Program-made: the position numbers and the translations under genes
Shown here: one piece after another, positions 3,929 through 17,459 of the stretch
Position numbering within the stretch: the stretch's first letter is position 1
Layout: each line of letters begins with the position of its first letter
Assembly: GCF_988243305.1 (NCBI RefSeq)
Contig: NZ_OZ547136.1
DNA length: 64,000 nucleotides
Strand: one strand, 5' to 3'
Notes under the pieces: generated by a model
Database searches by the model: none
Seen by the model: only the letters and a program-made list of their open reading frames with translations
Told to the model about the DNA's origin: nothing

Positions 3929-3946
3929 ATCAGCGTCGCATCAGGC
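3929..3946. repeat. REP/palindromic-unit right arm (continuation of 2479..2496); a further REP follows to ~3994
   Basis: ATCAGCGTCGCATCAGGC is complementary to the left arm. GCCGGATGCGGCGTAAACGCCTTATCCTGCCTAC downstream is a second REP-like unit (BIME). Confidence 0.8.
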
Positions 3947-4004
3947 ATCCTGCTCAAATGCCGGATGCGGCGTAAACGCCTTATCCTGCCTACAAATGCG
4001 GAGT

Positions 4005-5378
4005 TTAACTCCGCTTATACAGCGGCAACCAAATCACCAGCCGTAAACCGCCCAGCGGGCTGTCTTCCGCTTTAACCCAGCCACGATGCTGCTGAATGGC
4101 GGTTTCAACAATCGCCAGCCCCAAACCTGTACCGCCAGATTCACGATCGCGTGCTTCATCGGTCCGATAGAACGGACGGAAAATCTGTTCGCGATCTTCC
4201 GGGCTAACGCCAGGACCATCGTCGTCCACCGTAATGGTGATACCGTCTTTATCTACCGCAAAGCCCACTTCAATCTTCGTATGGGAATAACGCAGAGCAT
4301 TACGAACAATGTTTTCCAGCGCACTTTCCAGGGCGTTCGGATTGCCGTACAGCGGCCACGGCCCAGGCGGGAAGTTAACCATCAACGACTTGCCCATCTG
4401 CTCGGCTTCGAACGCCGCGTTATCCAGCACTTCGCCCCACAACTGGTTAGCTTTCAATGTCTCGCTTACCAGCGCGTTTTTCTGCTGATTACGTGACATC
4501 ACCAACAGATCGTTAATCATGCTGTCCAGACGTTGCGCTTCGGTTTCAATACGCTCCAGTTCCTTGCTTTCACCGCTACGACGGCGCAGTAACGCCGTAC
4601 CCAGTTGCAGACGCGTCAGCGGGGTGCGCAGCTCGTGAGAGATATCAGAAAGTAGACGCTGCTGAGAGGTCATCATGCGCTCCAGCGCGGTGACCATCTG
4701 GTTAAAACTGGCACCTGCGGCAAGGAATTCCTGTGGCCCCGCTTCCAGTTCCGGGTGCTGGCGTAAGTTTCCCTGGGCAACTTCATCGGCAGCGTTTTTC
4801 AGCTTACGCGCCGGTTTTGCCAGACTCCAGGCCAACCACAACAGCAACGGCGTACTGACCAGCATGGTGACAATCAGCAGTAATAGCGGGCGGTCAAACA
4901 GTAAGTTAATGAAATCGGATTGAGAACTGCTGGCCGGACGAATCAGATAAAGTTGGTAATTATCTTCGCCATCACGCACGGAGAACGGACCGACCAGTTC
5001 CACGCGCCCATACTTTTTCTTCTGCGGATGATCGGCGTTATCGGCCTGACCAATAAAGTTACGAATGATCTGCATTTCGCTGCGTTCAGCGCCGATCACG
5101 CGGCCTTCGGTGGTCACCAATAACAAACGCTGTCCTGGCGGTGCCCACTTATCAATCGCCCGGAACAGACGCCGCCACCACATTAAATCATTGGGCGGAT
5201 CGTTCGCCAGCTCCGCTTCGACATGCTGCTCAATCATCAGACCCTGACGCTGTTCGCTATCCAGAAGCTCGGTCATCTGGCGTGAATCGAGCTTGGGTAA
5301 CATCAAAACCAACATCAACACCAGCGCCAGCGTCAGCCAGAAGATGGCGAAGATGCGCGCGGTTAAGCTGCCTATCAT
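4005..5378 (-). CDS. cpxA: envelope-stress sensor histidine kinase CpxA
   Basis: Track ORF of 457 aa. Two TM segments, HAMP, the H-box SHELRTPLTRL, and an ATPase G-box DDDGPGV...GTGLGLAIV. Confidence 0.97.
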   Translation of the reverse strand: MIGSLTARIFAIFWLTLALVLMLVLMLPKLDSRQMTELLDSEQRQGLMIEQHVEAELANDPPNDLMWWRRLFRAIDKWAPPGQRLLLVTTEGRVIGAERSEMQIIRNFIGQADNADHPQKKKYGRVELVGPFSVRDGEDNYQLYLIRPASSSQSDFINLLFDRPLLLLIVTMLVSTPLLLWLAWSLAKPARKLKNAADEVAQGNLRQHPELEAGPQEFLAAGASFNQMVTALERMMTSQQRLLSDISHELRTPLTRLQLGTALLRRRSGESKELERIETEAQRLDSMINDLLVMSRNQQKNALVSETLKANQLWGEVLDNAAFEAEQMGKSLMVNFPPGPWPLYGNPNALESALENIVRNALRYSHTKIEVGFAVDKDGITITVDDDGPGVSPEDREQIFRPFYRTDEARDRESGGTGLGLAIVETAIQQHRGWVKAEDSPLGGLRLVIWLPLYKRS

Positions 5379-6073
5379 GAAGCAGAAACCATCAGATAGC
5401 CGCGACCACGCAAGGTTTTAAACCACGGGTGACCATCTTTACGATCCGGCAGTTTACGACGCAGGTTGGAAATGTGCATATCGATAGCGCGGTCGAAAGG
5501 CGTCAGACGTTTGCCCAGCACTTCCTGGCTTAAATGTTCACGGGAAACCACCTGACCCAGATGCTGTGCCAGCAAATAGAGCAGGGTAAACTCAGTACCG
5601 GTTAACTCCAGCGTTTGCCCGTCGAAGCTGGCTTCCTGACGGCCTGGATTCAGCACTAAGGCATCAACTTCCAGTGTCGGTGAACCGTTGTCGTTGTTTT
5701 GCTGTTGCTCGCTCCAGTGCGAACGGCGCAGGATCGCGCGAATACGTGCCACCAGCTCACGATCATTAAACGGTTTCGGGAGATAGTCATCTGCGCCCAG
5801 CTCAAGGCCGAGAACGCGATCAAGTTCACTGCCGCGCGCCGTCAACATAATGACAGGCGTCTGGTGTGTCTGGCGAAGTGCTTTTAATGTGTCGATACCA
5901 TTTTTCTTCGGCATCATTACATCAAGCAAAAGTAAATCAATGCTGTCGTCCAGAAGATCAAGCGCCTGTTCCCCATCGTGGGCAACAATCACATTGAAGC
6001 CTTCCATCTCGAGCAGCTCCTTTAATAGGGAAGTCAGCTCTCGGTCATCATCAACTAACAGGATTTTATTCAT
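5375..6073 (-). CDS. cpxR: response regulator CpxR (OmpR family)
   Basis: Track ORF of 232 aa starting MNKILLVDDDRELT, with a receiver domain and a winged-helix C-terminus. Overlaps the cpxA start by 4 nt. Confidence 0.97.
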   Translation of the reverse strand: MNKILLVDDDRELTSLLKELLEMEGFNVIVAHDGEQALDLLDDSIDLLLLDVMMPKKNGIDTLKALRQTHQTPVIMLTARGSELDRVLGLELGADDYLPKPFNDRELVARIRAILRRSHWSEQQQNNDNGSPTLEVDALVLNPGRQEASFDGQTLELTGTEFTLLYLLAQHLGQVVSREHLSQEVLGKRLTPFDRAIDMHISNLRRKLPDRKDGHPWFKTLRGRGYLMVSAS

Positions 6074-6128
6074 TGTTTAAATACCTCCGAGGCAGAAATT
6101 ACGTCATCAGACGTCGCTAATCCATGAC

Positions 6129-6143
6129 TTTACGTTGTTTTAC
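6129..6143 (-). promoter_or_regulatory. CpxR-P binding box GTAAA-N5-GTAAA in the cpxR/cpxP divergent promoter region
   Basis: The plus strand reads TTTACGTTGTTTTAC, which is GTAAAACAACGTAAA on the minus strand. This is an exact match to the tandem pentamer consensus. An extra GTAAA lies at 6174-6178. Confidence 0.8.
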
Positions 6144-6222
6144 ACCCCCTGACGCATGTTTGCAGCCTGAATCGTAAACTCTCTATCGTTGAATCGCGAC
6201 AGAAAGATTTTGGGAGCAAATG

Positions 6223-6723
6223 ATGCGCATAGTTACCGCTGCCGTCATGGCCTCAACGCTGGCAGTCAGTTCATTAAGCCACGCTGCTGAAGTCGGTTCA
6301 GGCGATAACTGGCATCCGGGTGAAGAACTTACGCAGCGCAGTACGCAGAGCCATATGTTCGACGGCATAAGTTTAACCGAACATCAGCGTCAGCAGATGC
6401 GAGATCTTATGCAACAGGCCCGGCACGAACAGCCTCCTGTTAATGTTAGCGAACTGGAGACAATGCATCGCCTTGTCACCGCAGAAAATTTTGATGAAAA
6501 CGCTGTGCGCGCACAGGCAGAAAAAATGGCGAATGAGCAAATTGCTCGTCAGGTTGAGATGGCAAAAGTCCGCAACCAAATGTATCGCCTGTTAACGCCG
6601 GAGCAGCAAGCGGTTTTAAACGAGAAACATCAACAACGAATGGAGCAGTTGCGCGACGTGACGCAATGGCAAAAAAGTTCATCGTTGAAGCTATTGAGTA
6701 GTAGCAACTCACGTTCCCAGTAG
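6223..6723 (+). CDS. cpxP: periplasmic Cpx pathway inhibitor/adaptor CpxP
   Basis: Track ORF 6220..6723. The K-12-type protein starts [11 protein letters not shown] at the second ATG (6223). Signal peptide and two LTXXQ motifs (LTEHQ, LTPEQ). Confidence 0.95.
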
Positions 6724-6732
6724 TAAACCCTG

Positions 6733-6790
6733 TTTTCCTTGCCATAGACACCATCCCTGTCTTCCCCCACATGATGTGGGGGTTTTTTTT
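6733..6790 (+). ncRNA. cpxQ: CpxQ sRNA (processed 3' UTR of cpxP mRNA)
   Basis: A 58-nt stretch, UUUUCCUUGCCAUAGACACCAUCCCUGUCUUCCCCCACAUGAUGUGGGGGUUUUUUUU, lies directly after the cpxP stop and ends in the terminator. It matches my recollection of CpxQ. The 5' end is set by RNase E processing and cannot be read from DNA. Confidence 0.6.
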
Positions 6791-6793
6791 ATC
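6747..6793 (+). repeat. prophage att core, copy 1 (int-proximal), 47 bp
   Basis: GACACCATCCCTGTCTTCCCCCACATGATGTGGGGGTTTTTTTTATC is identical to 38352..38398. The flanking bases differ on both sides. Confidence 0.92.
6764..6790 (+). terminator. cpxP/CpxQ intrinsic terminator
   Basis: CCCCCACAT-g-ATGTGGGGG hairpin followed by T8. Confidence 0.9.
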
Positions 6794-6875
6794 AATTACT
6801 TACATGCAATCAAAAGTAAAAACAGGTACTTATCGAAAGCTGTAAGGGTTTGGAGCGGTTTCAAAATTTCTTGAG

Positions 6876-6894
6876 TGTGGACACTATGTGGACA
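6876..6894 (+). promoter_or_regulatory. tandem TGTGGACA repeats, candidate integrase arm-type binding sites
   Basis: TGTGGACActaTGTGGACA sits between the att core and the int stop. The same motif pair recurs at 38285..38303 next to the other att copy. Confidence 0.55.
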
Positions 6895-6909
6895 TTCAGA
6901 GGGGGAAAT

Positions 6910-7890
6910 TTATAACGTCACTCCGCCTTTTAGTGGATTCAGAGCGACGGCATTTTGCAGATAGTCAGGCGCAAGGTGCGCATAGGCCATCGTCTGCTGA
7001 ATGCTCGCATGTCCCAGAATCTGTTGCAGTGCGATTATATTGCCCCCATTCATCATGAAATGGCTTGCGAATGTATGCCGCAGGATGTGGGTTGCCTGAT
7101 TGGGTGGTATATCAGGTTTCACTCTGCGTAAAATCCCGCAAAATTTCTCATAATCAACTTTGAATAATTTGGCGCTGGCCTCCTCTTTAACTTTTTTCTC
7201 CAGTTCCTCAGAAATCGGCACGGTTCGCTTTTTACCGTTTTTGGTTTTCAGGAAGGTAACCCTGCAATTTGTAATCTGTGCTGGTTTTAGCGTGGCAACT
7301 TCCGTCCATCTTCCTCCGGTGCTCAGACATAAAAGCGCGACAAGTAAGTCATCACCAGCCAAAACATTTAACAGTTTTTCGATTTCTGCTTTTTCCAGGA
7401 ACGTCATTTCAGGGTTGGCCTCCGCCAGTGGCGGCAGTCCGTGAATTGGGTGTTGCCCGGAAAATTCATCCAATTGAATTAATTTTGTGAACATGCCGGA
7501 TAATCGGTACATGTCACGGTTTATCGTTGCGGCACTGATACCATCACGTAGTCGCATGGAACGATAATCCATCAAAGCCCTTTTGCTCATCCTGCTCACT
7601 GGTATATCACCTATGCCGCTGATGGTTTTGAGTAGATGATTAAACTCTTTTGTTCCATGCTCGTGGTTTTGCCCGTGATATTTCCACCAGATGTCCAGCA
7701 ACTCACTCAAAGTCCGGCGGTCTGCTCGCTGGCCTCCCCATTCTTTCTGACTGGCATTGGCGATTGTGTATCGCTCAAATGCTAGTGCTTCAGCTTTTCT
7801 TTCGAATTTCCTGCGGATGCGTTTTCCGTCGCGACCGCGAGGTCTAATGTCCACTTCATAGCGACCATCATCGAGCTTCTTAATTGCCAT
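6910..7890 (-). CDS. int: P2-type tyrosine integrase
   Basis: Track ORF 6910..7920. The P2 Int-like N-terminus MAIKKLDDGRYEVDIRP starts at 7890, with GGAGGG 8 nt upstream. The C-terminus has the HxLRHTFASH...Y tyrosine-recombinase motifs. Confidence 0.93.
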   Translation of the reverse strand: MAIKKLDDGRYEVDIRPRGRDGKRIRRKFERKAEALAFERYTIANASQKEWGGQRADRRTLSELLDIWWKYHGQNHEHGTKEFNHLLKTISGIGDIPVSRMSKRALMDYRSMRLRDGISAATINRDMYRLSGMFTKLIQLDEFSGQHPIHGLPPLAEANPEMTFLEKAEIEKLLNVLAGDDLLVALLCLSTGGRWTEVATLKPAQITNCRVTFLKTKNGKKRTVPISEELEKKVKEEASAKLFKVDYEKFCGILRRVKPDIPPNQATHILRHTFASHFMMNGGNIIALQQILGHASIQQTMAYAHLAPDYLQNAVALNPLKGGVTL

Positions 7891-7959
7891 AAGAAAGCCC
7901 TCCGGCGCTGTATTCACCATCTTGGTAGCAAATGGTAAAAATGTAATCTTTATATAGAG

Positions 7960-8253
7960 TTAGCCAATCCTTTTCGCGGAGTGGTTGGACTCTGTTGACT
8001 CTGGCCCAATGTGCGCGAGAGCCGGTGCGATTTGTCCTGCGTCCGGCGCGGTTTTATCTGTCATAAGCCATAGAGCATATTTTTGGAATGTGGGATGCAT
8101 AGTGATTTTTAGCAAAGCTGTGCCACCGGGTTCAAAGTTTCCTCCTTCATATTTTTTAAGTGTGCTTAGCGGTAACTCTATGATTTCACAGAATTTTGAT
8201 TGGCTTAGCCCTTCAGCCTCACGCAAGGCCTTAATCTTTTCGCTTAATTTCAT
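7960..8253 (-). CDS. C: immunity repressor, P2 C-like (HTH), of a non-P2 immunity type
   Basis: 97-aa track ORF. HTH in the N-terminus (GLSQSKFCEIIELPLSTLKKYE). The C-terminal GQIAPALAH block is shared with P2 C (recollection); the rest diverges. Confidence 0.85.
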   Translation of the reverse strand: MKLSEKIKALREAEGLSQSKFCEIIELPLSTLKKYEGGNFEPGGTALLKITMHPTFQKYALWLMTDKTAPDAGQIAPALAHIGPESTESNHSAKRIG

Positions 8254-8308
8254 TTGACATGGTGCCTATATAGGGACTAAATTCCCTCAAAACTGGAACC
8301 TATATAGG
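8254..8308 (+). promoter_or_regulatory. early promoter/operator region (Pe/Pc switch)
   Basis: TTGACA at 8254-8259 points toward cox. The 10-bp palindrome CCTATATAGG occurs twice (8265-8274 and 8299-8308), 34 bp apart, between the divergent C and cox genes. Confidence 0.55.
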
Positions 8309-8374
8309 TTCCATTGATTTGAGAATAAACCAGCATCTAAACGGTTTTGAGTGGTTTAGAAAGGGCTGGATCCT

Positions 8375-8662
8375 ATGAGGGTACCATATATGGACGCTGA
8401 AAATTATGTGATTCAGTATCCGCTTGATGCGGTTCATGTGGATAAATTTGCTGATTTATTAGGGAAGCCAAAGACAGCCGTCAGTGAAATGGTGAAGGCA
8501 AATAAATTACCAATTATTGAATTGCGTGATCCTTGCAAACCGAAGGCTCGTGCCGGTGAAAAATGGGTTTTCATTCCTGAGTTTAATCGCGCTGTACGTG
8601 AGGCGTTTTATAACCGACCGGTTGAACAGCGTGATGCATGGCTTTTGTGGATGGGGTTGTGA
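8375..8662 (+). CDS. cox: Cox-like excisionase/early repressor
   Basis: 95-aa track ORF; an alternative ATG lies at 8390. The end ...RDAWLLWMGL resembles P2 Cox ...RDGWLMWLGL (recollection). It is the first rightward gene, opposite C. Confidence 0.8.
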   Translation: MRVPYMDAENYVIQYPLDAVHVDKFADLLGKPKTAVSEMVKANKLPIIELRDPCKPKARAGEKWVFIPEFNRAVREAFYNRPVEQRDAWLLWMGL

Positions 8663-8664
8663 TT

Positions 8665-8835
8665 ATGAATGAGCCGCGTTGTATTGCTCAGTTATTGCGT
8701 AACGAAAGCCCCAGGGCGATTGACTTCACTATCACCCACGGTAAGGGGCGTAAGGGAATCATTATCCGCACCAAAAAACAGAGTCCGTTAAAAAAGGCTC
8801 TGACCTTTCTGAAAAGCCGGAGGGTATGGAAATGA
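8665..8835 (+). CDS. small hypothetical early protein (P2 orf78 position)
   Basis: In the track ORF 8638..8835, ATG 8665 directly follows the cox stop (tgattATG). Supported by synteny only. Confidence 0.5.
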   Translation: MNEPRCIAQLLRNESPRAIDFTITHGKGRKGIIIRTKKQSPLKKALTFLKSRRVWK

Positions 8836-9332
8836 CAGTGATGACGCTCAATCTCGTTGAAAAACAGCCAGCAGCTATGCGCCGGATAATTGGCAAGCAT
8901 CTTGCCGTCCCTCGCTGGCAGGATACATGTGATTATTATAATCAGATGATGGAGCGCGAACGGCTAACGGTTTGCTTTCATGCACAGTTAAAACAGCGTC
9001 ACGCAACGATGCGTTTTGAAGAAATGAACGACGTCGAACGTGAACGACTGGTTTGTGCAATTGATGAATTGCGTGGCGCATTCTCAAAACGCCGTCAGGT
9101 CGGCGCAAGTGAGTATGCATATATTAGTTTTTTAACAGTCAGTCAGCGTCGTACTTTATTTATGCATGCGGGATTGACAGAAAAAGAATTCAATCAGCCG
9201 TACTGGCGAATTAATGAAGAATCATGTTACTGGCGTGATGCTTTATTCCGTGCATTACGTGAATTATTCAGTCTGTTTGAGTATGCACCGACAATTCTGA
9301 CGTCGGTAAAACCAGAGCAATATCTGCATTAA
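8826..9332 (+). CDS. B: P2 B-like replication protein (helicase loader function)
   Basis: 168-aa track ORF at the position and size of P2 B. The sequence MTVMTLNLVEKQPAAMRRIIGKHL... matches my recollection of P2 gpB. Confidence 0.82.
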   Translation: MEMTVMTLNLVEKQPAAMRRIIGKHLAVPRWQDTCDYYNQMMERERLTVCFHAQLKQRHATMRFEEMNDVERERLVCAIDELRGAFSKRRQVGASEYAYISFLTVSQRRTLFMHAGLTEKEFNQPYWRINEESCYWRDALFRALRELFSLFEYAPTILTSVKPEQYLH

Positions 9333-9395
9333 ATAATTAACCAGAGTTTTTAACGCACTTAATCGTGCGGGGCTTCTTTTTGCCTGGAGAAAGTC

Positions 9396-9620
9396 ATGCA
9401 TACAGTTTCTGAAAATCAGTGCGGTAAATACGCATTACTGCTGCAACAGGCCAGAACCGAAGCACAGGCCGACGCTGCGACGCGCTTTTCTTCTCATCTT
9501 GACGCCATGATTCGCCACATCACAAAGGCGGAGTTATCCCGCGTGGAGATAGTTGAGCTGCTCAGTCAGGAGTCGGAAAAATTTCACAATATCGGATTGT
9601 CTCGCGGGGAGGTGCTTTGA
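9396..9620 (+). CDS. hypothetical early protein (P2 orf80 position)
   Basis: 74-aa track ORF in the P2 early operon; GGAGA upstream. Confidence 0.65.
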
Positions 9621-9922
9621 TGTCCTGTTCTCGTTCGGTTGTATTACTGAATAACGCCTTAAAAATCGCCGTTATGAAAAATGGTGATTTGTCTCTTATT
9701 CAACTTGGTATTGATAAAGAGAAGCGCGAAATAACTGAATCTGTTATCGCGATTTATCAGAGTGAATTAAACCTCCTGTCTGATGTGGTCAATTTACTTG
9801 TTAAACGCGCTGTATTCCACAAGCAAATTTCCTCAGTGGATGAACTGACAAAATTAACGACAGAACTCGCCAGTTATTGCGCTGATGAATTTAAGAAGCT
9901 GAACGACAAAAGGAGCTGGTAA
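9617..9922 (+). CDS. hypothetical early protein (P2 orf81 position)
   Basis: 101-aa track ORF whose start overlaps the previous stop by 4 nt (translational coupling). Confidence 0.65.
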
Positions 9923-10146
9923 TGCCGGACAACGTGGATTTTATTCAGGAACAACAGGCTGAATTACTGGAGCGCCAGATTAACGCGGCAAGGGTAAAAC
10001 ATTGCGGTGTTTCTGCGCTGGTTTGCGAAGAGTGTGACGCGCCAATACCTGCTGCCCGTCGTGCGGCTTATCCGTCAGCCACGCGTTGTGTTTCCTGTCA
10101 GTCAGTCTTTGAAGCAAAAAACAAACATTACCGGAGAACGGCATGA
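9922..10146 (+). CDS. DksA/TraR-family C4 zinc-finger protein (P2 orf82 position)
   Basis: 74 aa with the CxxC-N17-CxxC pattern CEECDAPIPAARRAAYPSATRCVSCQ. Confidence 0.8.
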   Translation: MPDNVDFIQEQQAELLERQINAARVKHCGVSALVCEECDAPIPAARRAAYPSATRCVSCQSVFEAKNKHYRRTA

Positions 10147-10418
10147 GTATTCGTATTGAAATTGGCGAACGTTATGTCGTTACCAGTGACAGCTTTCAGT
10201 TTATTCTCCACGAGAAAAAGAGAGCGGAAAGCGGTAAAAACGCCGGTCAGGAATGGCTGGCGGTGGTTGGTTATTACCCGAAATTAGGCCAGCTCGTTTC
10301 CGGCCTGATGCATCACGATATTCTGACCGGAAGCGCAAAATCTTTTGCTGATTTAAACGCGCAGGTTGAGCAACTCAGCAAGCGTTGTTCAGAGGCTTTT
10401 GGCTCATATGGCCGTTAA
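10143..10418 (+). CDS. hypothetical early protein (P2 orf83 position)
   Basis: 91-aa track ORF coupled to its neighbours by overlapping start and stop codons. Confidence 0.65.
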   Translation: MSIRIEIGERYVVTSDSFQFILHEKKRAESGKNAGQEWLAVVGYYPKLGQLVSGLMHHDILTGSAKSFADLNAQVEQLSKRCSEAFGSYGR

Positions 10419-12684
10419 AGCCTCCGGGCGTTTTGTCCCTCCGTCAGCATTTACCGCAGGCACCGGTAAGGCGTTTACCGGTGCTTATGCATGGAACGCG
10501 CCACGCGAGGATGTCGGGCGCGAAAGACCTCTTACACGTGACGAGATGCGTCAGGTGCAAGGTGTTTTATCCACGATTAACCGCCTGCCTTACTTTTTGC
10601 GCTCGCTGTTTACTTCACGCTATGACTACATCCGGCGCAATAAAAGCCCGGTGCACGGGTTTTATTTCCTCACATCTACTTTTCAGCGTCGTTTATGGCC
10701 GCGCATTGAGCGTGTGAATCAGCGCCATGAAATGAACACCGACGCGTCGTTGCTGTTTCTGGCAGAGCGTGACCACTATGCGCGCCTGCCGGGAATGAAT
10801 GACAAGGAGCTGAAAAAGTTTGCCGCCCGTATCTCATCGCAGCTTTTCATGATGTATGAGGAACTCTGCGATGCATGGGTTGATGCGCATGGTGAAAAAG
10901 AATCGCTGTTTACGGATGAGGCGCAGGCTCACCTGTATGGTCATGTTGCTGGCGCTGCACGTGCTTTCAATATTTCCCCGCTCTACTGGAAAAAATACCG
11001 TAAAGGACAGATGACCACGAGGCAGGCATATTCTGCCATTGCCCGCCTGTTTAACGATGAGTGGTGGATTCATCAGCTTAAAGGCCAGCGTATGCGCTGG
11101 CATGAGGCGTTACTGATAGCTGTCGGGGAGGTCAATAAAGACCGTTCTCCTTATGCCAGTAAACACGCCATTCGTGATGTGCGTGCGCGCCGCCAGGCAA
11201 ATCTGGAATTTCTTAAATCGTGTGACCTTGAAAACAGGGAAACCGGCGAGCGCATCGACCTTATCAGTAAGGTGATGGGCAGTATTTCTAATCCTGAAAT
11301 TCGCCGGATGGAGCTGATGAACACCATTGCCGGTATTGAGCGTTACGCCGCCGCAGAGGGTGATGTGGGGATGTTTATCACGCTGACCGCGCCGTCAAAG
11401 TATCACCCGACACGTCAGGTCGGAAAAGGCGAAAGTAAAACCGTTCAGCTTAATCACGGCTGGAACGATGAGGCATTTAATCCAAAGGATGCGCAGCGTT
11501 ATCTCTGCCGTATCTGGAGCCTGATGCGCACGGCATTCAAGGATAATGATTTACAGGTCTACGGTTTGCGAGTCGTCGAGCCACACCACGACGGAACGCC
11601 GCACTGGCATATGATGCTTTTTTGTCATCCACGCCAGCGTAACCAGATTATCGAAATCATGCGTCGCTATGCGCTCAAAGAGGATGGCGACGAAAGAGGA
11701 GCCGCGCGAAACCGTTTTCAGGCAAAACACCTTAACCGGGGCGGTGCTGCGGGATATATCGCGAAATACATTTCAAAAAACATCGACGGCTATGCACTGG
11801 ATGGTCAGCTCGATAACGACACCGGCAGGCCGCTGAAAGACACTGCAGCGGCTGTTACCGCATGGGCGTCAACGTGGCGCATTCCGCAATTTAAAACGGT
11901 TGGCCTGCCGACAATGGGGGCTTACCGTGAACTACGCAAATTGCCTCGCGGCGTCAGCATTGCTGATGAGTTTGACGAGCGCGTCGAGGCTGCACGCGCC
12001 GCCGCAGACGGTGGTGATTTTGCGCTGTATATCAGCGCGCAGGGCGGGGCAAATGTCCCGCGCGATTGTCAGACTGTCAGGGTCGCCCGTAGTCTGTCGG
12101 ATGACGTTAACGAGTACGAGGAAGAAGTCGAGAGAGTGGTCGGCATTTACGCGCCGCATCTCGGCGCGCGTCATATTCATATCACCAGAACGACGGACTG
12201 GCGCATTGTGCCGAAAGTTCCGGTCGTTGAGCCTTTGACTTTAAAAAGCGGCATCGCCGCGCCTCGGAGTCCTGTCAATAACTGTGGAAAGCTCACCGGT
12301 GGTGATACTTCGTTACCGGCTCCCACACCTTCTGAGCACGCCGCAGCAGTGCTTAATCTGGTTGATGACGATGTTATCGAATGGAATGACCCGGAGGTCG
12401 TGAGGGCGCTCAGGGGCGCATTAAAACACGACCGGAGAACGCCAAACCGTCAGCAAAGAAACGGAAGCCCGTTAAAACCGCATGAAATTGCACCATCGGC
12501 CAGACTGACCCGGTCGGAACGATTGCAAATTACCCGTATCCGCGTTGATCTCGCTCAGAACGGTATCAGGCCGCAACGATGGGAGCTTGAGGCGCTGGCG
12601 CGTGGCGCGACCGTAAATTATGACGGGAAACCTTTCACTTATCAGGTCGCTGATGATTGGCCGGGATTTTTGTTACCCATTTGA
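10408..12684 (+). CDS. A: P2 A-like rolling-circle replication initiation endonuclease
   Basis: Track ORF 10366..12684. The P2 gpA N-terminus MAVKASGRFVPPSAF starts at 10408. Contains the HUH-type motif EPHHDGTPHWHMMLF and the active-site YIAKYISK tyrosines. Confidence 0.93.
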   Translation: MAVKASGRFVPPSAFTAGTGKAFTGAYAWNAPREDVGRERPLTRDEMRQVQGVLSTINRLPYFLRSLFTSRYDYIRRNKSPVHGFYFLTSTFQRRLWPRIERVNQRHEMNTDASLLFLAERDHYARLPGMNDKELKKFAARISSQLFMMYEELCDAWVDAHGEKESLFTDEAQAHLYGHVAGAARAFNISPLYWKKYRKGQMTTRQAYSAIARLFNDEWWIHQLKGQRMRWHEALLIAVGEVNKDRSPYASKHAIRDVRARRQANLEFLKSCDLENRETGERIDLISKVMGSISNPEIRRMELMNTIAGIERYAAAEGDVGMFITLTAPSKYHPTRQVGKGESKTVQLNHGWNDEAFNPKDAQRYLCRIWSLMRTAFKDNDLQVYGLRVVEPHHDGTPHWHMMLFCHPRQRNQIIEIMRRYALKEDGDERGAARNRFQAKHLNRGGAAGYIAKYISKNIDGYALDGQLDNDTGRPLKDTAAAVTAWASTWRIPQFKTVGLPTMGAYRELRKLPRGVSIADEFDERVEAARAAADGGDFALYISAQGGANVPRDCQTVRVARSLSDDVNEYEEEVERVVGIYAPHLGARHIHITRTTDWRIVPKVPVVEPLTLKSGIAAPRSPVNNCGKLTGGDTSLPAPTPSEHAAAVLNLVDDDVIEWNDPEVVRALRGALKHDRRTPNRQQRNGSPLKPHEIAPSARLTRSERLQITRIRVDLAQNGIRPQRWELEALARGATVNYDGKPFTYQVADDWPGFLLPI

Positions 12685-12943
12685 GTAAAAATACAGCGTG
12701 ATTTTATATGTCTTTGAATGGATTATGCGAAACACCTCTAAGGTAGATGAGGAGCAATAGCGTGTTGAATCAGAAGGCTAAATTGTATTGAATCGTTAGC
12801 ATGTAATTGAAGGCAGCTATTTGATTCGAGTCATAAAAGAGCATCTATTTCGGTTAATAAAACCATTGCGAGTGACTTTATGTCGAAGCATAATTCATCT
12901 CGAGCGAAGTCTTGCTAGTCTTTCATCGGATTGATGACGGGCG

Positions 12944-12975
12944 CAAAAAAACCACCCTGGCAGGTGGTTTTTTTG
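12944..12975. terminator. bidirectional intrinsic terminator
   Basis: A7-ACCACC-ctggca-GGTGGT-T7. The A-run and T-run flank the stem, so it can terminate transcription from either side. Confidence 0.75.
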
Positions 12976-12986
12976 TTTGAAGCATA

Positions 12987-13100
12987 CTAAAGAAAAATAC
13001 TTACATGGATATTACTGACGTTTACTGACAAACCACTCGGACTACCATATGGATAGCCAAAGAGGGCCAGAACGAGAATGCAGTAATAGCACTTCTTCAT
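12987..13100 (-). CDS. 37-codon hydrophobic mini-ORF (candidate small membrane/toxic peptide)
   Basis: Below the track's length cut-off. The minus strand reads AGGAGG-cgat-ATG AAG AAG TGC TAT TAC TGC ATT CTC GTT CTG GCC CTC TTT GGC ... TAG, giving MKKCYYCILVLALFGYPYGSPSGLSVNVSNIHVSIFL. The bidirectional terminator lies 12 nt after its stop. Confidence 0.45.
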   Translation of the reverse strand: MKKCYYCILVLALFGYPYGSPSGLSVNVSNIHVSIFL

Positions 13101-13822
13101 ATCGCCTCCTGTAAGCAGAGGGCAATTTCCGCCGATATATGCGCTTCTAAGGCGGAGTGACTATTGAGCGAAGTCTTGCCCTGAAATAATGCTCTGTTTA
13201 AACGCAAAGTGATCTGGCATATCACCGAACAGAGGACCTGAACAACACAACATATAGTATGTCGTTGTTTCTGGTTGCATTTTATGTTGTGTAATACTGG
13301 TTTTGCATCAAGGATGTTTGAGCTTTTTTTGATATAGCTCAAAGTAAAAAGCAGAGACTACGGATGATAAGGTCTTGAAAGCAATGTAAATTTTTTAAAG
13401 TTGTGAGTGGCTAGAAATGCACAGTTTCAATATGGCGGATTTAAACAAGTAATTAAAAATAGCGACACAAATTCCAATAAAATCATTAAGTTGCGTTTTC
13501 TGTGGAAACTTCGGTGACTCTGAAATTTTCTTTTAGTATCGCTGAGGTTTAACAACTCGCTGCGCAAGTAGTTAGTGTTTTTTTTAACTCAATATTCTGA
13601 TTTATAAGGTTTTTTATAAATCGTGGGCTGGTTGCGCATATTCATCTCGTGTTATCAGCAAAGATAAGCTCTATATGCAGAACTGAATGCATATATGATG
13701 TCGAAAATGTTATGGGAAAACGTGGATTAGTGTTATAGTAATGGCTGAAAAACAGCCTTGACATAAAATAACAACTGTGATATGGCTGTGCATACTTAAC
13801 TTTTTTAACGTAGGAGGCAACC

Positions 13823-14308
13823 ATGAGCTATGCAGCTAAAAAACTGCTTGACCGCTATTGGGATCGCCGACTACCTGTCGATCCGTTTAAGCTTGCTAAA
13901 GCGTGGGGTGCTCGTGTTGAAGCACTTGAGGAATCGGCTTATAACAACGATGGGTTAAGCGGTCTGGCTGTCATCAAAAAGGGTGTCCATAGGATTTATT
14001 TTGATTCTAGTGAACATTCTAATCGTCAACGTTTTACTGTTGCACACGAGTTAGGTCATCATGTGCTGGGGCATACCCAGGACGGAGAGTACCATCGGGA
14101 TAATGTCGGGAATTATTCAACAGGTGCTCGTGATTACCGTGAGGTTGAAGCAAACAAGTTTGCTGCTGAGTTGTTAATGCCTGAGTCTGCTATACGTCAA
14201 TTGGTATCCAGAGAAGGTATTGATAGCACTTTGAGATTAGCAAGCATCTTTAATGTATCAGAAGCCGCTATGCATTGGCGCTTAAAGAGCTTAGGAATGG
14301 CTTATTAA
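13823..14308 (+). CDS. ImmA/IrrE-family (Peptidase_M78/DUF955) zinc metallopeptidase
   Basis: 161-aa track ORF with AGGAGG 5 nt upstream. HEXXH motif in FTVAHELGHHVLGH, followed by EVEANKFAAELLMPE, the characteristic third-ligand/helix block of the family. Confidence 0.85.
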   Translation: MSYAAKKLLDRYWDRRLPVDPFKLAKAWGARVEALEESAYNNDGLSGLAVIKKGVHRIYFDSSEHSNRQRFTVAHELGHHVLGHTQDGEYHRDNVGNYSTGARDYREVEANKFAAELLMPESAIRQLVSREGIDSTLRLASIFNVSEAAMHWRLKSLGMAY

Positions 14309-14335
14309 TTAGCCTTTAACTTTTAACCTGTTTAA

Positions 14336-14374
14336 AATCACCTTTACGTTTGTACATGTAAGGGTGATTTTTTT
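14336..14374 (+). terminator. hairpin plus T7 between the peptidase gene and the 2-TM gene (terminator/attenuator that covers the downstream RBS)
   Basis: AATCACCTTTA (14336-14346) pairs with TAAGGGTGATT (14359-14369) over 11 bp, including one G-U. T7 runs directly into ATG 14375. The 3' arm contains the only SD-like AAGGGTGA for the next gene. Confidence 0.6.
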
Positions 14375-14974
14375 ATGGCTGATATTGATTTATCTGGACA
14401 GTCCCCAGAGCAAGGAACCACTCCTAAGGGCGATTTAGATCCTGATATCCTTATAAGGCGAGATAGACGGGATGGTATAGAGCGTAGAAGTATGCGATTA
14501 GTGCTCTCTGCCGTTGTGCTTTGTTTTGCTTGTACATTTCTATGGCAGGGGCTTAACTTTGCTTTGGCTGTTGGAAATGGCTTGCTGGAAGCGAAAAGCA
14601 GTATTGCCGCAGCGATAACACAAAAAGTAGATACACAAACTTGTGTTTCAGCAGAAAAATGTTCTGCTTTATCTTCGGATCCGAAGATGGCTGATGAGAG
14701 GATAACACCATCTTCAGACACTAATAAAGTTAGAAAATCTATTTCTGGTTTATCCACCGATTGGTTATCGGCCAGTTCTCTAATAGCTATTGTTGCATTC
14801 ATCCTTGGTGTGGGTTTAACTTTGCTTTTGACTCTTCTTAAATCAGCATTTCAACACCCGACAGATAAAGACTTTAGAACAAAGTCGACATCTAATACTA
14901 TTGAGTTGGCCACGCCAATCAGTGAATTAATAATTGGTGTTCTGAATATAATTAAAGACAAACTATCTAAGTAA
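14375..14974 (+). CDS. hypothetical two-transmembrane-helix protein
   Basis: 199-aa track ORF. Charged N-terminus, then hydrophobic helices LVLSAVVLCFACTFLWQGLNFALAV and LIAIVAFILGVGLTLLLTLL. I recognise no family. Confidence 0.65.
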   Translation: MADIDLSGQSPEQGTTPKGDLDPDILIRRDRRDGIERRSMRLVLSAVVLCFACTFLWQGLNFALAVGNGLLEAKSSIAAAITQKVDTQTCVSAEKCSALSSDPKMADERITPSSDTNKVRKSISGLSTDWLSASSLIAIVAFILGVGLTLLLTLLKSAFQHPTDKDFRTKSTSNTIELATPISELIIGVLNIIKDKLSK

Positions 14975-15016
14975 AGCATTAGTTGTGATTTTTTATTGGT
15001 TTTAGTGATAATACAT

Positions 15017-15049
15017 CTCCAGTACTTATTGTTACTGGAGAGTATTTTT
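15017..15049. terminator. hairpin between convergent genes
   Basis: CTCCAGTA-cttattgt-TACTGGAG followed by agTATTTTT. Lies between the stops at 14974 (+) and 15057 (-). Confidence 0.65.
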
Positions 15050-15056
15050 AGTCGTT

Positions 15057-15998
15057 TTATATTTTTAATGTTAGTGAATGATATTCACGAGAGTTCACGT
15101 TCGATGTGATGTAATCGGGGGCGTTAACACCAAGAATCGCAACGAGTAATCGGCAAATTAAAGCCTGCATTTGTTGTAATATGTCATCTCCATATTGATA
15201 ATTGTTAATAGTGGTAAAGCCAAGTGGTTGACCATGAAACATAGCTTCATGAAAGTTTTCATTGCGGATGTTTGTAATGTTTTTTTTACCTGTAACCCAT
15301 GATGGTCGTGGTATTCCATAAGTTTTGCAGATCCACTTCAAGCGCCTGGAGTGATTTAGAGTCTTTTCTGTACACTTGTTCTTTTCTGCCCATGTTAAAG
15401 CAAAGCAACTATCCAGTGCCATATAAAGATACTGGAATTTTTCGAAGCTAAGGTATTGTGGGTTTTGGGATAAAAATAGTGCATGCACTATTGCTGCTAT
15501 ATTTATTGGTGCGTGTTTGGTTTTTGTCTCGCTAGACATGTATTTGAGTGCTAATTCTATAACCTCTTTTTCAGAGCACTTGACCAGAATAAAGTCAGTT
15601 AATTTGCTGGGTTTTATTGGGGTTGCGTCTAAAAAACCGGCATCAGTAGTTGTTAATCTTATCCCTTTGAAAAAAGACAGACACCACACAGCAAAATTGA
15701 GAGTTTCTAGTGAAGATGTATTTTTTAATTTTAGTGAGTGTGTTTTGGGTAAGCCAAATACTCGTTGGCTAAAAGGCATTGTGGATATGCCTCCATTGAG
15801 GTTATATACTTCTTGGTTTCCTGGGTATATCCAACCGTTAATAACATTTCTGTGATTGTTTATAAGATTTGTTTTTTCCGCTAGACCGGGTAAAGTAAGT
15901 AAAGAAAAATCATCAGTTTCAACGTTAACTTCTACTGGATAGTATCCAAACTCAGCTTCAATATCATTGGATTGCTGTTCGTCAACTTTACCTTGCAT
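15057..15998 (-). CDS. hypothetical 313-aa protein with a C-terminal HEPN-like RNxxxH motif (candidate abortive-infection RNase)
   Basis: Track ORF with GGAG 8 nt upstream of the ATG. The codons CGC AAT GAA AAC TTT CAT at 15266..15249 encode RNENFH (R245-H250) in a predicted helical C-terminal region. AT-rich codon usage unlike the rest of the prophage. Confidence 0.6.
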   Translation of the reverse strand: MQGKVDEQQSNDIEAEFGYYPVEVNVETDDFSLLTLPGLAEKTNLINNHRNVINGWIYPGNQEVYNLNGGISTMPFSQRVFGLPKTHSLKLKNTSSLETLNFAVWCLSFFKGIRLTTTDAGFLDATPIKPSKLTDFILVKCSEKEVIELALKYMSSETKTKHAPINIAAIVHALFLSQNPQYLSFEKFQYLYMALDSCFALTWAEKNKCTEKTLNHSRRLKWICKTYGIPRPSWVTGKKNITNIRNENFHEAMFHGQPLGFTTINNYQYGDDILQQMQALICRLLVAILGVNAPDYITSNVNSREYHSLTLKI

Positions 15999-16236
15999 AC
16001 ATTGCTCCGGTCAAAAATAGGCTCGATAATTCTCGTAAGCCTATCATGTTCGCAAAGTATCCATACCTGTGGATTTTGTAAATTTAAGTTGATTTGTCAT
16101 TAAATAAGCCGTTGCATGCAACAAGTGAATGTTTTTGCATGCGTCGGGGATGTCCGTTCAGGCTGCGTGCGGTCAGGACTGGTGCGGATCCATAGTATCT
16201 ATGCAACTGCATTAAAACCGCCCCATGAAGCGGGCG

Positions 16237-16255
16237 GGCGAGGCGGGGAAAGCAC
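16237..16255 (+). other. cos: P2 cos cohesive-end sequence (19 nt)
   Basis: GGCGAGGCGGGGAAAGCAC is an exact match to my recollection of the P2 cohesive end. It is located just upstream of the Q/P packaging genes, as in P2. Confidence 0.85.
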
Positions 16256-16424: not shown

Positions 16425-17459
16425 TCAGCCGTTGTCGGTGTCCAGTGAGTAGTTTTTAAAGCGGATGACCTCCTGACCGAGCCAGCCGTTTATCTCGCGG
16501 ATCCTGTCCTGTAACGGGATAAGCTCATTGCGGACAAAGACCTTTGCCACTTTCTCAATATCACCCAGCGACCCGACGTTCTCCGGCTTGCCGCCCATCA
16601 ACTGAAAAGGGATGCGGTGCGCGTCCAGCAGGTCTGCGGCGCTGGCTTTTTTGATATTAAAAAAATCGTCCTTCGTTGCCACTTCACTGAGCGGGATAAT
16701 TTTAATGCCGTCGGCTTTCCCTTGCGGGGCATAGAGAAACAGATTTTTAAAGTTGTTGCGGCCTTTCGACTTCACCATGTTTTCGCGGAGCATTTCGATA
16801 TCGTTGCGATCCTGCACGGCATCAGTGACGTACATGATGTATCCGGCATGTGCGCCGTTTTCGTAATACTTGCGGCGGAACAGCGTGGCCGACTCATTCA
16901 GCCAGGCAGAGTTAAGGGCGCTGAGATATTCCGGCAGGCCATACAGCTCCTGATTAATATCCGGCTCCAGCAGGTGAAACACGGAGCCGGGCGCGAAAGG
17001 TGTCGGCTCATGGAAGGACGGCACCCACCAGTAAACATCCTCTTCCACGCCACGGCGGGTATATTTTGCCGGTGAGGTTTCCAGTCTGATGACCTTACCG
17101 GTGGTGCTGTAACGCTTTTCCAGAAACGCATTACCGAACACCAGAAAATCCAGCACAAAGCGGCTGAAATCCTGCTGGGAAAGCCACGGGTGCGGAATAA
17201 ACGTTGAAGCCAGAATATTACGTTTGACGTAAATCGGTGAGCTGTGATGTACGGCAGCACGCAGGCTTTTTGCCAGACCGGTAAAGCTGACCGGTGGCTC
17301 ATACCATCTGCCGTTACTGATGCACTCGACGTAATCCAGAATGTCACGGCGGTCGAGTACCGGCACCGGTTCACCAAAGGTGAATGCCTCCATTTTCGGG
17401 GCGCTGGCGGTCATTTTTTTTGCCGCAGGTTGCGGTGTTTTCCCTTTTTTCTTGCTCAT
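16425..17459 (-). CDS. Q: portal protein
   Basis: 344-aa track ORF, the same length and position as P2 gpQ. Adjacent to cos and coupled to P. Confidence 0.93.
   Translation of the reverse strand: MSKKKGKTPQPAAKKMTASAPKMEAFTFGEPVPVLDRRDILDYVECISNGRWYEPPVSFTGLAKSLRAAVHHSSPIYVKRNILASTFIPHPWLSQQDFSRFVLDFLVFGNAFLEKRYSTTGKVIRLETSPAKYTRRGVEEDVYWWVPSFHEPTPFAPGSVFHLLEPDINQELYGLPEYLSALNSAWLNESATLFRRKYYENGAHAGYIMYVTDAVQDRNDIEMLRENMVKSKGRNNFKNLFLYAPQGKADGIKIIPLSEVATKDDFFNIKKASAADLLDAHRIPFQLMGGKPENVGSLGDIEKVAKVFVRNELIPLQDRIREINGWLGQEVIRFKNYSLDTDNG

Follow-up and report, generated by a model that had tools for sequence, protein, structure and literature searches.

What does a P2-like prophage carry between its replication gene A and its cos site, and does this cargo form one system or several? 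The window analyzed here is a stretch of 64,000 nucleotides (contig NZ_OZ547136.1), in which this interval is occupied by an island at positions 12685-16236.

An AT-rich mosaic between gene A and cos

The island is bordered on the left by P2 gene A (ORF 10366-12684, stop at 12684; Pfam Phage_GPA match of 4e-124) and on the right by cos (16237-16255, plus strand), which is an exact match to the 19-nt P2 cohesive-end sequence (GGCGAGGCGGGGAAAGCAC). The portal gene Q lies beyond it at 16425-17459 on the minus strand. G+C content is 38.8% in the island versus 53.7% in gene A and 55.5% in Q and P, and is the lowest among all 3.4-kb windows of the 64 kb. An earlier note, made from the sequence alone, had described an AT-rich island between the A stop and cos, had tallied 22 G+C in positions 15061-15120 and had placed the locus at the hypervariable tin/old hotspot of P2. 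Composition and borders were confirmed, the tally is exact, and the hotspot assignment is supported. Cassette exchange between conserved flanks, also proposed there, is borne out by comparison of the A-cos interval, with the flanks matched in 2160 of 5426 complete E. coli genomes and the entire island in only 45. The note's gene calls (an ImmA/IrrE protein, a 2-TM protein and an RNxxxH protein) proved correct, and its 1.1-kb ORF-poor stretch with a mini-ORF corresponds to a region devoid of annotated genes that holds a 37-codon ORF at 13100..12987.

The island is real cargo and a mosaic of three independently distributed modules rather than one system. The spacer that constitutes module 1 occurs without modules 2 and 3 before an AAA ATPase gene in E. 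coli W and before a SIR2 gene in strain M172-1. P2-EC67, phage vB_EcoM-613R3 and about 49 additional E. coli genomes have ORF313 (module 3) but not the ImmA-2TM pair (module 2), and O121 and DC1 have the pair but not ORF313. Rousset et al. 2022 also entered ImmA-2TM and ORF313 as separate systems (#21 and #11). The expectation of one or two modules therefore held for the two independent protein modules and missed a third, small RNA/peptide module. Three hairpins are present, at 12941-12975 (bidirectional), 14334-14374 and 15016-15041 (bidirectional, between the convergent 2TM and ORF313 genes). As the note had anticipated, each module has its own terminator-like signals; each also has promoter-like signals and is probably expressed from the prophage.

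A candidate small RNA and peptide gene in the spacer

Module 1 is an unannotated spacer (12685-13450), common to 149 complete E. coli genomes at about 86-99% identity, where it always lies directly after gene A with different cargo downstream. It also occurs in 392 Klebsiella/Enterobacter plasmids. A sigma-70-type promoter (TTGCGA-17 nt-CATAAT; 12866-12894, plus strand) is predicted to drive a candidate sRNA of ~76 nt (12901-12976, plus strand) with a folding z of -4.2; in the plasmid copies the promoter hexamers and spacing are kept, while the spacer sequence has diverged. The predicted transcript ends at a shared, bidirectional intrinsic terminator (AAAAAAACCACC-ctggca-GGTGGTTTTTTT; 12941-12975), which is also a putative insulator of the cargo from the early operon. 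On the minus strand is a 37-codon hydrophobic ORF (12987-13100; MKKCYYCILVLALFGYPYGSPSGLSVNVSNIHVSIFL) with a GGAGG Shine-Dalgarno, the product of which is a candidate type I toxin or small membrane peptide. The ORF has 37 codons in every copy and is conserved at the protein level with synonymous changes. Through its 5' end (12902-12915; GAGCGAAGTCTTGC) the candidate sRNA could pair with the mini-ORF mRNA, whose 5'UTR contains a complementary target site (13166-13179, minus strand; GCAAGACTTCGCUC on the mRNA) 66 nt before the ATG; the two sites are direct-repeat copies of each other. Conservation points to a -10 element for this mRNA at 13279-13284 (minus strand), reading TAAAAT, or TAGAAT in some copies. 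Prophage and plasmid copies of the mini-ORF share only 59-65% protein identity; across that distance the ORF keeps its length and its Shine-Dalgarno, and the terminator, the hexamers of the sRNA promoter and the two repeat copies are likewise retained. The leader hairpin displays one compensatory change (CCGCC/GGCGG to CCACC/GGTGG). No Rfam or NCBIfam family was matched by the candidate sRNA or the peptide.

This layout resembles that of a type I toxin-antitoxin locus. A minus-strand mRNA with a long leader would encode the 37-aa hydrophobic peptide, and the 5' end of the convergent sRNA would pair with 14-17 nt of the leader, resulting in less peptide being made. A short hydrophobic ORF after a long structured leader, together with a separately transcribed small RNA whose 5' end pairs with a short leader stretch, is characteristic of chromosomal type I loci with a trans-acting sRNA, and both features are shared with tisB/istR-1, zorO/orzO, shoB/ohsC and dinQ/agrB. 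In those loci the sRNA gene is divergent, whereas here it is convergent, downstream of the ORF and joined to it by a common terminator. Module 1 may serve in element stabilisation, or in toxicity triggered by stress or infection.

The ImmA and 2TM gene pair

The first gene of module 2 (13823-14308, plus strand) encodes a 161-aa ImmA/IrrE (M78) zinc metallopeptidase that consists of the protease domain only, with the active-site motif H75-E76-x-x-H79 and E109. It matches Pfam Peptidase_M78 above cut-off (3.8e-21), PADLOC capP (1e-30) and the CapP structure 7t5t (7.6e-7). A putative promoter at 13758-13786 (plus strand; TTGACA, a 17-nt spacer including TG, and TATGGC) is kept in the P2-DC1/O121 and Pectobacterium copies, and the gene has a strong AGGAGG Shine-Dalgarno. 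Between ImmA and 2TM, a terminator-like hairpin with a T-run (14334-14374, plus strand) ends at the 2TM ATG and contains an SD-like GGTGA within its 3' arm. This covarying hairpin always abuts the 2TM ATG, its structure being kept in 7 lineages with six different stem sequences. The second gene (14375-14974, plus strand) encodes a 199-aa two-transmembrane protein, predicted to be N-in/C-in, with hydrophobic segments at about residues 42-64 and 126-154. Its N-terminus bears a conserved motif (M-x-D-[IV]-DLS-G); further features are a Pro-rich linker, a loop with two Cys, a TM2 that is very conserved and an amphipathic helix at the C-terminus. It had no match in PADLOC, NCBIfam or Pfam, and its structure model is poor (pLDDT 64).

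Elsewhere the two genes, mostly separated by a comparable ~70-nt gap, lie at one end of a prophage in Pectobacterium and in K. grimontii and are carried by a Serratia islet, a Vibrio element and a Mu-like prophage of Aeromonas; in a P. aeruginosa prophage they directly follow a cI-like S24 repressor gene. ImmA/2TM identities to the window copy (88/63, 86/55, 63/51 and 46/31%) diverge in parallel. By sequence comparison, ImmA and 2TM are thus a co-diverging pair that travels as one unit among P2-like, Mu-like and other prophages and islands.

ImmA-2TM is most likely a protease-gated membrane effector. A minimal cytoplasmic protease would be overproduced from its consensus -35 hexamer and AGGAGG Shine-Dalgarno, whereas 2TM expression would be throttled by the hairpin, which would also bury the 2TM Shine-Dalgarno. 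ImmA would act on a cytoplasmic tail of 2TM, the best candidate site being the conserved N-terminal DLS-G motif; the classical substrates of ImmA-type proteases are helix-turn-helix repressors, which counts against 2TM in this role. Infection would alter this control and allow 2TM to oligomerise via TM2, so that the inner membrane would be depolarised or permeabilised, with abortive infection or exclusion as the outcome, as for lambda RexAB. RexAB, too, is a two-gene prophage system in which a soluble protein is partnered by a small polytopic membrane protein, and since lambda rexAB directly follows the cI repressor gene, the P. aeruginosa ImmA-2TM pair occupies the equivalent position. The two systems differ in that they have no sequence or fold relationship and that the soluble partner here is a protease; RexAB-like depolarisation by 2TM is an inference only. 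The Hydrolase + 3TM and RT-nitrilase + 1TM systems of Rousset et al. are likewise sensor-plus-membrane-effector abortive infection pairs. An ImmA-2TM variant is also present in DC1, a P2-like phage that Rousset et al. isolated, and protection against their eight-phage panel was reported only for the AC1 lysogen, which is weak negative evidence on an anti-phage role.

Two other readings of the pair were weighed. It is unlikely, if still worth considering, that ImmA-2TM is an addiction module of toxin-antitoxin type rather than a defence system, in which the membrane protein would be the toxin, the abundant protease would be a proteolytic antitoxin that degrades it continuously, and cells that lose the element would die. 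Antitoxin-first operons do have a similar order of genes and a similar asymmetry of expression, seen here in a strong ImmA Shine-Dalgarno and a 2TM gene behind a terminator hairpin; many different mobile elements have the pair at their edges, a Desulfovibrio homologue is labelled "toxin" by one database source, and Makarova and colleagues are said to have predicted COG2856/M78 proteins as toxin-antitoxin components in 2009. However, post-segregational killing depends on a labile antitoxin, a role to which a stable enzyme is poorly suited, and many toxin-antitoxin systems are abortive-infection systems, so that this reading overlaps with the protease-gated effector. It is quite improbable that ImmA is the prophage's own regulator, an anti-repressor protease that cleaves the immunity repressor on a signal, with 2TM as membrane-anchored sensor or protease inhibitor, as modelled on ImmA/ImmR, IrrE/DdrO and CapP/CapH. 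These comprise the closest characterised family, as the capP match and the CapP and IrrE structure matches indicate; they share the HExxH plus downstream E and an association with defence systems and mobile elements. Phage vB_EcoM-613R3 has "UV induction of prophage" and DinI annotations in the same interval, and the P. aeruginosa pair follows a repressor gene. Those proteases have an HTH partner, whereas ImmA here has a two-TM partner; no helix-turn-helix partner was found anywhere in the island, and no LexA box upstream. ImmA (161 aa) is also without the GAF domain that CapP and IrrE (291-301 aa) possess; it has no cysteine switch, containing no Cys at all, and no CBASS or other effector operon follows it. 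Carriers of the pair include prophages of unrelated types and the non-prophage Serratia islet, settings in which the only constant possible substrate is 2TM, which diverges together with ImmA.

ORF313 and the island as a whole

ORF313 (15057-15998, minus strand) is a convergent, stand-alone gene of 313 codons with a GGAG Shine-Dalgarno 8 nt upstream of its ATG. Its AlphaFold2 model (pLDDT 83.7, pTM 0.84) shows a beta-rich domain at the N-terminus and a HEPN-like helical domain at the C-terminus; the latter carries R245-x4-H250-E251, in which the motif reads R245-N-E-N-F-H250. R245-N-x3-H250-E251 is invariant in 30 homologues; in 48 more distant ones H250 is invariant and R245/N246 are kept at at least 90%. 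The family comprises 641 representative clusters, always of about 300 aa and stand-alone. In P. aeruginosa islands homologues have Gabija as their neighbour, and in Acinetobacter a DUF4238 gene; Rousset et al. 2022 validated one DUF4238 protein as a defence system. ORF313 is predicted to be a single-gene HEPN-type ribonuclease. Its N-terminal domain would probably sense a trigger or auto-inhibit the enzyme; once activated, and presumably as a dimer like other HEPN nucleases, the protein would use its Rx4H site to cleave RNA, and infection would be aborted. Single-gene HEPN abortive infection or defence proteins include AbiV, AbiF/D, ApeA, HepS of Gifsy-1, Tha and DS-11; searched against the PADLOC, Pfam and PDB models of these proteins, ORF313 gave no significant sequence match, and it differs from them in its N-terminal domain, which has no recognised relative.

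That the helical domain is instead a non-catalytic HEPN-like or unrelated bundle, with a binding or regulatory role, is very unlikely. Many HEPN domains are indeed non-catalytic, as in sacsin and the kanamycin-nucleotidyltransferase partner proteins. ORF313 had no match in PADLOC, NCBIfam or Pfam, including no significant Pfam HEPN match, a Foldseek search gave no significant PDB match, and pLDDT around the motif is only 54-67. Against this, loss of the R/H pair is usual in HEPN domains that are non-catalytic, and R245, N246, H250 and E251 are (near-)invariant in the family down to 26% identity. The most improbable reading by far is that the island has no selected function in this prophage and is drifting AT-rich junk or decaying remnants of hotspot recombination. 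RefSeq annotates no gene in 1.1 kb of it, a P2/P4 study (NAR 2026) described many small intergenic pseudogene remnants in these loci, and one strain has an IS element and a truncated gene A at the locus. However, the three ORFs are intact and at least 99% identical in 45-46 genomes, each has homologues down to 30-45% identity with motifs and lengths kept, and the "empty" spacer is conserved against distant plasmid copies at the protein and promoter level, so that the conservation data already largely refute this reading.

The locus had been called a novel candidate, which did not hold: ORF313 was deposited as P2-EC67 ORF313, and Table S5B of Rousset et al. 2022 lists it as system #11 (218 occurrences) and Peptidase_M78 + 2TM as system #21 (148 occurrences), at the same locus between gpA and gpQ. 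The ORF313 entry is one residue apart from the protein here and ImmA is identical; the 2TM entry is near-identical, with a few substitutions, but begins at an internal start and lacks the N-terminal 40 aa, which homologues conserve. Both sequences are absent from the tables of tested systems in that study, and no tool or paper linked modules 2 and 3 to a validated defence system. The earlier note could assign the combination to no named system, and PADLOC has no model covering 2TM or ORF313.

The two protein modules of this island have thus been catalogued since 2022, in entries made up of Pfam labels and counts only, with no fold, mechanism, name or test. An anti-phage function of modules 2 and 3 is plausible from their context. 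The sequence analysis itself establishes how the modules are built, conserved and distributed, the pairing and the resemblance in fold, whereas all activities and the anti-phage role are inferred. With slightly better than even confidence, the island is best explained as three-module hotspot cargo, in which a toxin-antitoxin-like cassette would be carried alongside a protease-gated membrane effector and a HEPN ribonuclease.

An exchangeable island between gene A and cos

The island (12685-16236) is bounded by replication gene A (ORF 10366-12684; Pfam Phage_GPA match, 4.4e-124) and by the 19-nt P2 cohesive-end sequence, cos, which occurs a single time, as an exact match, at 16237-16255. Portal and terminase genes are located 3' of cos on the minus strand, and the portal gene is also annotated in identical E. 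coli loci. The earlier note had placed this DNA in the P2 A-cos (tin/old) hotspot, and the Phage_GPA match, the exact cos at 16237 and the portal gene bear that placement out. The G+C content of 12685-16236 is 38.8%, versus 53.7% for A and 55.5% for Q+P, making the island the lowest-G+C 3.4-kb stretch in the 64-kb window; a previous tally of 22 G+C for the line 15061-15120 was exact on recount. All four of the reported contents were found, namely a 1.1-kb annotation-free stretch with a 37-codon ORF, an ImmA/IrrE gene (13823-14308), a two-transmembrane (2TM) gene (14375-14974), and a convergent 313-aa gene (ORF313; 15057-15998, minus strand) that carries RNENFH. Hairpins are located at 12941-12975, 14334-14374 and 15016-15041.

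Comparison of the A-cos interval across P2-like prophages, which the earlier note had proposed, revealed conserved flanks and exchangeable content. The flanks were matched in 2160 of 5426 complete E. coli genomes and the whole island in 45 of the 5426, as expected of a cassette. Elsewhere the site is occupied by other cargo, such as an AAA ATPase, SIR2, tum/dinI or an IS element. The 750 nt that adjoin A recur at 86-99% identity in 149 genomes and are invariably right behind A, and the cargo 3' of this shared spacer varies: E. coli W has an AAA ATPase pair, M172-1 a SIR2 protein and a further strain an IS element. ORF313 occurs without the ImmA-2TM pair in P2-EC67 (deposited as "ORF313" beside ORF73 and ORF226), in phage vB_EcoM-613R3 (beside tum and dinI) and, as a 77-80% allele, in approximately 49 complete genomes. 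Conversely, an O121 strain and the P2-like phage DC1 have ImmA-2TM but no ORF313. The possibility that the whole island is one system was therefore rejected, since its modules are distributed independently of one another. Three modules make up this mosaic island: the spacer with its 37-codon ORF, the ImmA-2TM pair, and ORF313.

Two side observations concern the arrangement of the hotspot. In E. coli W (5240-5650 of the compared locus) and M172-1 (5330-5590), the cos region (GCATGCAACAAGTGAATG...GGCGAGGCGGGGAAAGCAC) is directly 3' of the shared spacer, and the cargo (AAA ATPase pair and SIR2, respectively) is found between cos and Q, so cargo is possible on either side of cos, as in P4. A decayed copy of the locus in E. 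coli CUPS TF 6/1_01 (3013-6332) has a truncated gene A, retains approximately 600 nt of the spacer, and has an ISVsa5 element inserted ahead of the portal gene.

Both protein modules were catalogued in 2022 without a name. In Table S5B of Rousset et al. 2022 (PMC9122126), ORF313 appears as system #11 (218 occurrences, without a Pfam label) and Peptidase_M78 plus 2TM as system #21 (148 occurrences); neither the ORF313 nor the M78-2TM sequences are in that study's tables of tested systems. The locus is thus less novel than had been assumed. A 2026 NAR study of P2/P4 hotspots tested P4 unknowns only, and the island proteins are absent from those DefensePredictor supplements that were searched. 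A PADLOC check of the three proteins, also proposed earlier, was positive for ImmA alone, and there only for generic M78 components (capP, RmrA, PDC-M69B and PD-Lambda-2_B in PADLOC-DB v2). 2TM and ORF313 had no match at E ≤1 in the same database, whose models include ApeA, Abi families, PD- and PDC-. A candidate anti-phage locus is a reasonable but unproven reading of the island.

A short M78 protease and its membrane partner

ImmA, at 161 aa, has a bona fide M78 protease domain, as judged from its sequence. It scores 75.6 bits against Pfam Peptidase_M78 (PF06114; cut-off 22, E 3.8e-21), and its predicted zinc site, H75-E76-L-G-H79 plus E109, aligns with the site of CapP. These residues are kept in five lineages, except for a His at position 109 in Serratia. 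Among PADLOC models capP comes nearest (1e-30), and among solved structures CapP 7t5t (7.6e-7); the alignments cover positions 8-153 of 242 in the capP profile and, in the 291-aa CapP, residues 75-155. Despite this likeness, ImmA does not belong to a CapH/CapP-type regulator pair. CapH/CapP has an adjacent HTH repressor as substrate, whereas no ORF of at least 30 aa in 12685-16236 has an HTH match; CapP and IrrE carry a C-terminal GAF domain that the 161-aa ImmA does not have; and ImmA contains no cysteine, which also sets it apart from that system. Finally, CapH/CapP regulates a neighbouring defence operon, CBASS or other, whereas 2TM is here the sole downstream gene of the operon.

The one constant partner of ImmA is the 2TM protein, whose family is small (53 clusters). 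The family members share an M-x-D-[IV]-DLS-G motif at the N-terminus, a linker rich in Pro, an ERRxMR segment ahead of TM1, two loop cysteines, a near-invariant TM2 (AFILGVGLTLLLTLLK) and an amphipathic helix at the C-terminus. An N-in/C-in topology is suggested by the positive-inside rule together with the loop cysteines; the structure model has a pLDDT of 64. An apparently different ImmA partner in phage DC1 was rejected, as it is the same 2TM family annotated from an internal start.

The two genes move together. They are found at the end of a Pectobacterium prophage, within a Serratia islet, and in a recombinase-flanked element of Vibrio harveyi. Pairs with a more distant ImmA occur in a Mu-like prophage of Aeromonas (between mor and lysis genes), at the end of an HP1/P2-like prophage in K. 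grimontii, and in Maridesulfovibrio. The partners match the 2TM family profile at 1e-39 (Aeromonas), 1e-35 (K. grimontii) and 5e-5 (P. aeruginosa). In the P. aeruginosa prophage (2507-4434 of compared loci L032/L033), a 170-aa short ImmA and a 135-aa 2TM partner with the same DLS-G motif are co-oriented with, and directly downstream of, a cI-like S24 repressor gene. The equivalent position behind the repressor gene in lambda is occupied by rexAB. The two proteins diverge in parallel, with ImmA/2TM identities of 88/63, 86/55, 63/51 and 46/31%. The Serratia locus (7463-9246) contains a second M78 module approximately 1.8 kb downstream of the pair, in which a 371-aa HTH_3-Peptidase_M78 fusion comes after a 223-aa protein; this islet, between the phn operon and nrdD, consequently has two different M78-based pairs.

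Expression of 2TM appears to be held under unusual hairpin control. In seven lineages, a GC-rich hairpin plus T-run ends 0-2 nt 5' of the 2TM ATG, and its stems vary in sequence while the structure is kept (TCACCTTTAC, TCACCATTATC, TCACCATCAT, AGCCCTCA and AAGCCACC(T)). The sole Shine-Dalgarno-like element of the 2TM gene is within the 3' arm of this hairpin. The ImmA gene, in contrast, has an AGGAGG Shine-Dalgarno sequence and a TTGACA -35 hexamer, and with signals so unequal, expression should be skewed strongly towards the protease over 2TM. SOS control of ImmA was rejected, since no CTGT-N8-ACAG (LexA) box lies near its promoter; the nearest site with one mismatch is at 13194, inside the spacer module. 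Across the whole window, 34 such sites with at most one mismatch were counted versus 19.4 ± 3.6 in shuffles, none of which reached 34.

The best reading of ImmA-2TM is a protease-gated membrane effector, which would act by abortive infection or exclusion. A toxin-antitoxin or addiction module is a possible alternative and a prophage regulator is another. There is also a weak negative for defence, in that DC1 carries a variant of the pair, yet only the AC1 lysogen was reported as protective in an eight-phage test (PMC9122126).

ORF313, a predicted HEPN protein

Homologues of ORF313 are spread across Gammaproteobacteria and fall into 603 clusters when grouped at 90% identity, with 641 representatives at 50%. 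Among the homologues listed, nearly all are no longer than approximately 300 aa, and those of full length span the entire profile. An alignment of 30 homologues shows R245-N246-x3-H250-E251 to be invariant (30/30), and the motif here, R245-N-E-N-F-H250, fits Rx4-6H. Among 48 more distant homologues, with identities down to 26%, H250 remains invariant and R245 and N246 are each conserved at no less than 90%. H216 and R219 are likewise conserved among homologues. The AlphaFold2 model (pLDDT 83.7, pTM 0.84) consists of a beta-rich N-terminal domain (approximately residues 1-135) and a helical C-terminal domain. On the basis of the Rx4H conservation and this model, we consider it fairly likely that ORF313 is a HEPN-fold protein, and probably a catalytic one.

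Profile searches bear on this assignment as follows. Curated HEPN sequence models, such as Pfam HEPN_Apea, matched 0 of the 30 close members; among the 48 distant members, one reached HEPN_RiboL-PSP (E 0.074) and one HEPN_Apea (E 0.15), and a single UniRef entry among the relatives bears the name "Apea-like HEPN". ORF313 itself had no significant match to Pfam, NCBIfam, PADLOC or PDB profiles, and its model had none in Foldseek searches of BFVD and PDB. Matches to ribonucleotide reductase R2 (E 0.01) and to RyR domains (per-domain E 2-11) were put down to chance. The N-terminus of the family (residues 1-60, FGYYP...GWIYPG) bears a weak likeness to the bacterial RyR-repeat domain (PDB 6ug5, 3nrt), and because the per-domain E is 0.17 at best (single-domain chain) and 2-11 for the chimera, the likeness is not significant and serves as a lead only.

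The genomic context of the homologues supports a role in conflict. In P. aeruginosa integrative islands (6001-12960 of compared loci L017-L020), they are found approximately 3 kb from a Gabija pair, an OLD-like TOPRIM ATPase and a UvrD helicase; the same islands also carry DUF932, and one of the four loci carries ParB_N. In Acinetobacter (4907-6957 of the compared locus), the homologue is immediately 3' of a DUF4238 gene, and a DUF4238 protein is among the validated defence systems of Rousset et al. 2022 (PMC9122126); in Aeromonas it is a single-gene insertion. It is hypothesized that ORF313 is a stand-alone HEPN RNase, fused to a sensor, and that it would act by aborting infection.

A small-peptide cassette shared with plasmids

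The 37-codon ORF (13100..12987, minus strand) encodes MKKCYYCILVLALFGYPYGSPSGLSVNVSNIHVSIFL, is preceded by a GGAGG Shine-Dalgarno sequence, and has a perfect bidirectional terminator at its 3' side. Using tblastn, full-length homologues of the peptide (59-65% identity) were identified in 392 PLSDB plasmids; nearly all are large and conjugative and come from Klebsiella, with others from Enterobacter. The PLSDB gene table, which is incomplete, lists no gene at the site in the plasmid copies, and the cassette has no annotation in the complete E. coli RefSeq genomes checked. The peptide had no NCBIfam or Pfam match, and the peptide and repeat strings were found in no paper in a search of literature text. 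A scan of genome contigs for the two-copy repeat returned two loci only, of which that in Citrobacter freundii is real and that in a Muribaculaceae MAG is a chance repeat.

The cassette lies at 12860-13290 of the window and also in compared loci L025 (2300-2740), L026, L029, L030 and L031. Nine copies of it from prophage, plasmid and Citrobacter sources were aligned. The ORF is 37 codons long in 9/9 copies, with a core of CILVL[AT]LFGYP and synonymous codon changes, and this short hydrophobic ORF is under purifying selection. Also conserved in the nine copies are a -10 element, TA(A/G)AAT, approximately 180 nt upstream of the ORF, the terminator, and the hairpins of the leader; in E. coli W, one of these hairpins carries a compensatory change from G-C to A-U. 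The opposite strand has a conserved predicted promoter, TTGCG(A/G)-17 nt-CATAAT, in which the spacer sequence has diverged. This promoter and the shared terminator predict a candidate sRNA of approximately 76 nt (12901-12976) convergent to the ORF. Its 5' bases, GAGCGAAGTCTTGC, are the exact complement of the leader segment 13166-13179, the complementarity being 14 nt in the window copy and 17 nt in plasmid copies, and the candidate sRNA folds better than 200 of 200 shuffles (z = -4.2). In Rfam at E ≤1, there were sub-threshold matches only (RNAI, Phe leader and P9), all on the terminator. The type I toxin-antitoxin loci tisB/istR-1 and zorO/orzO, which employ trans-acting sRNAs, have the same architecture, although their arrangement is divergent and that of this cassette is convergent. 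By analogy, the cassette resembles a type I toxin-antitoxin locus with a candidate sRNA.

It is conceivable, if rather unlikely, that the short ImmA and its DLS-motif 2TM partner represent an unrecognised and widespread class of prophage-borne immune or exclusion systems (P2-like, Mu-like and other prophages and islands of Enterobacterales, Aeromonas, Vibrio and Pseudomonas). A minimal M78 protease would gate a membrane-permeabilising effector by cutting its cytoplasmic tail, the effector dose would be held down by the conserved terminator/Shine-Dalgarno-sequestering hairpin, and the adjoining cassette would belong to a new type I toxin-antitoxin family common to P2-like phages and large Klebsiella plasmids.

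The present analysis adds the three-module structure, the HEPN hypothesis for ORF313, the spread of ImmA-2TM with its unusual hairpin control, and a previously unannotated type I toxin-antitoxin-like cassette shared with Klebsiella plasmids. P2-like prophages occur in a large proportion of E. coli genomes, the A-cos hotspot is a proven source of new immune systems, and systems #11 and #21 are among its commoner cargoes, yet still unnamed. Hypotheses that can be tested by mutation are now available for both, namely the putative HEPN Rx4H site of ORF313 and, for a pair that extends far beyond P2, a HExxH protease acting on its 2TM partner. The "empty" 1.1 kb conceals a conserved small-peptide and candidate sRNA cassette that hundreds of clinical Klebsiella plasmids also carry and that could aid their maintenance.
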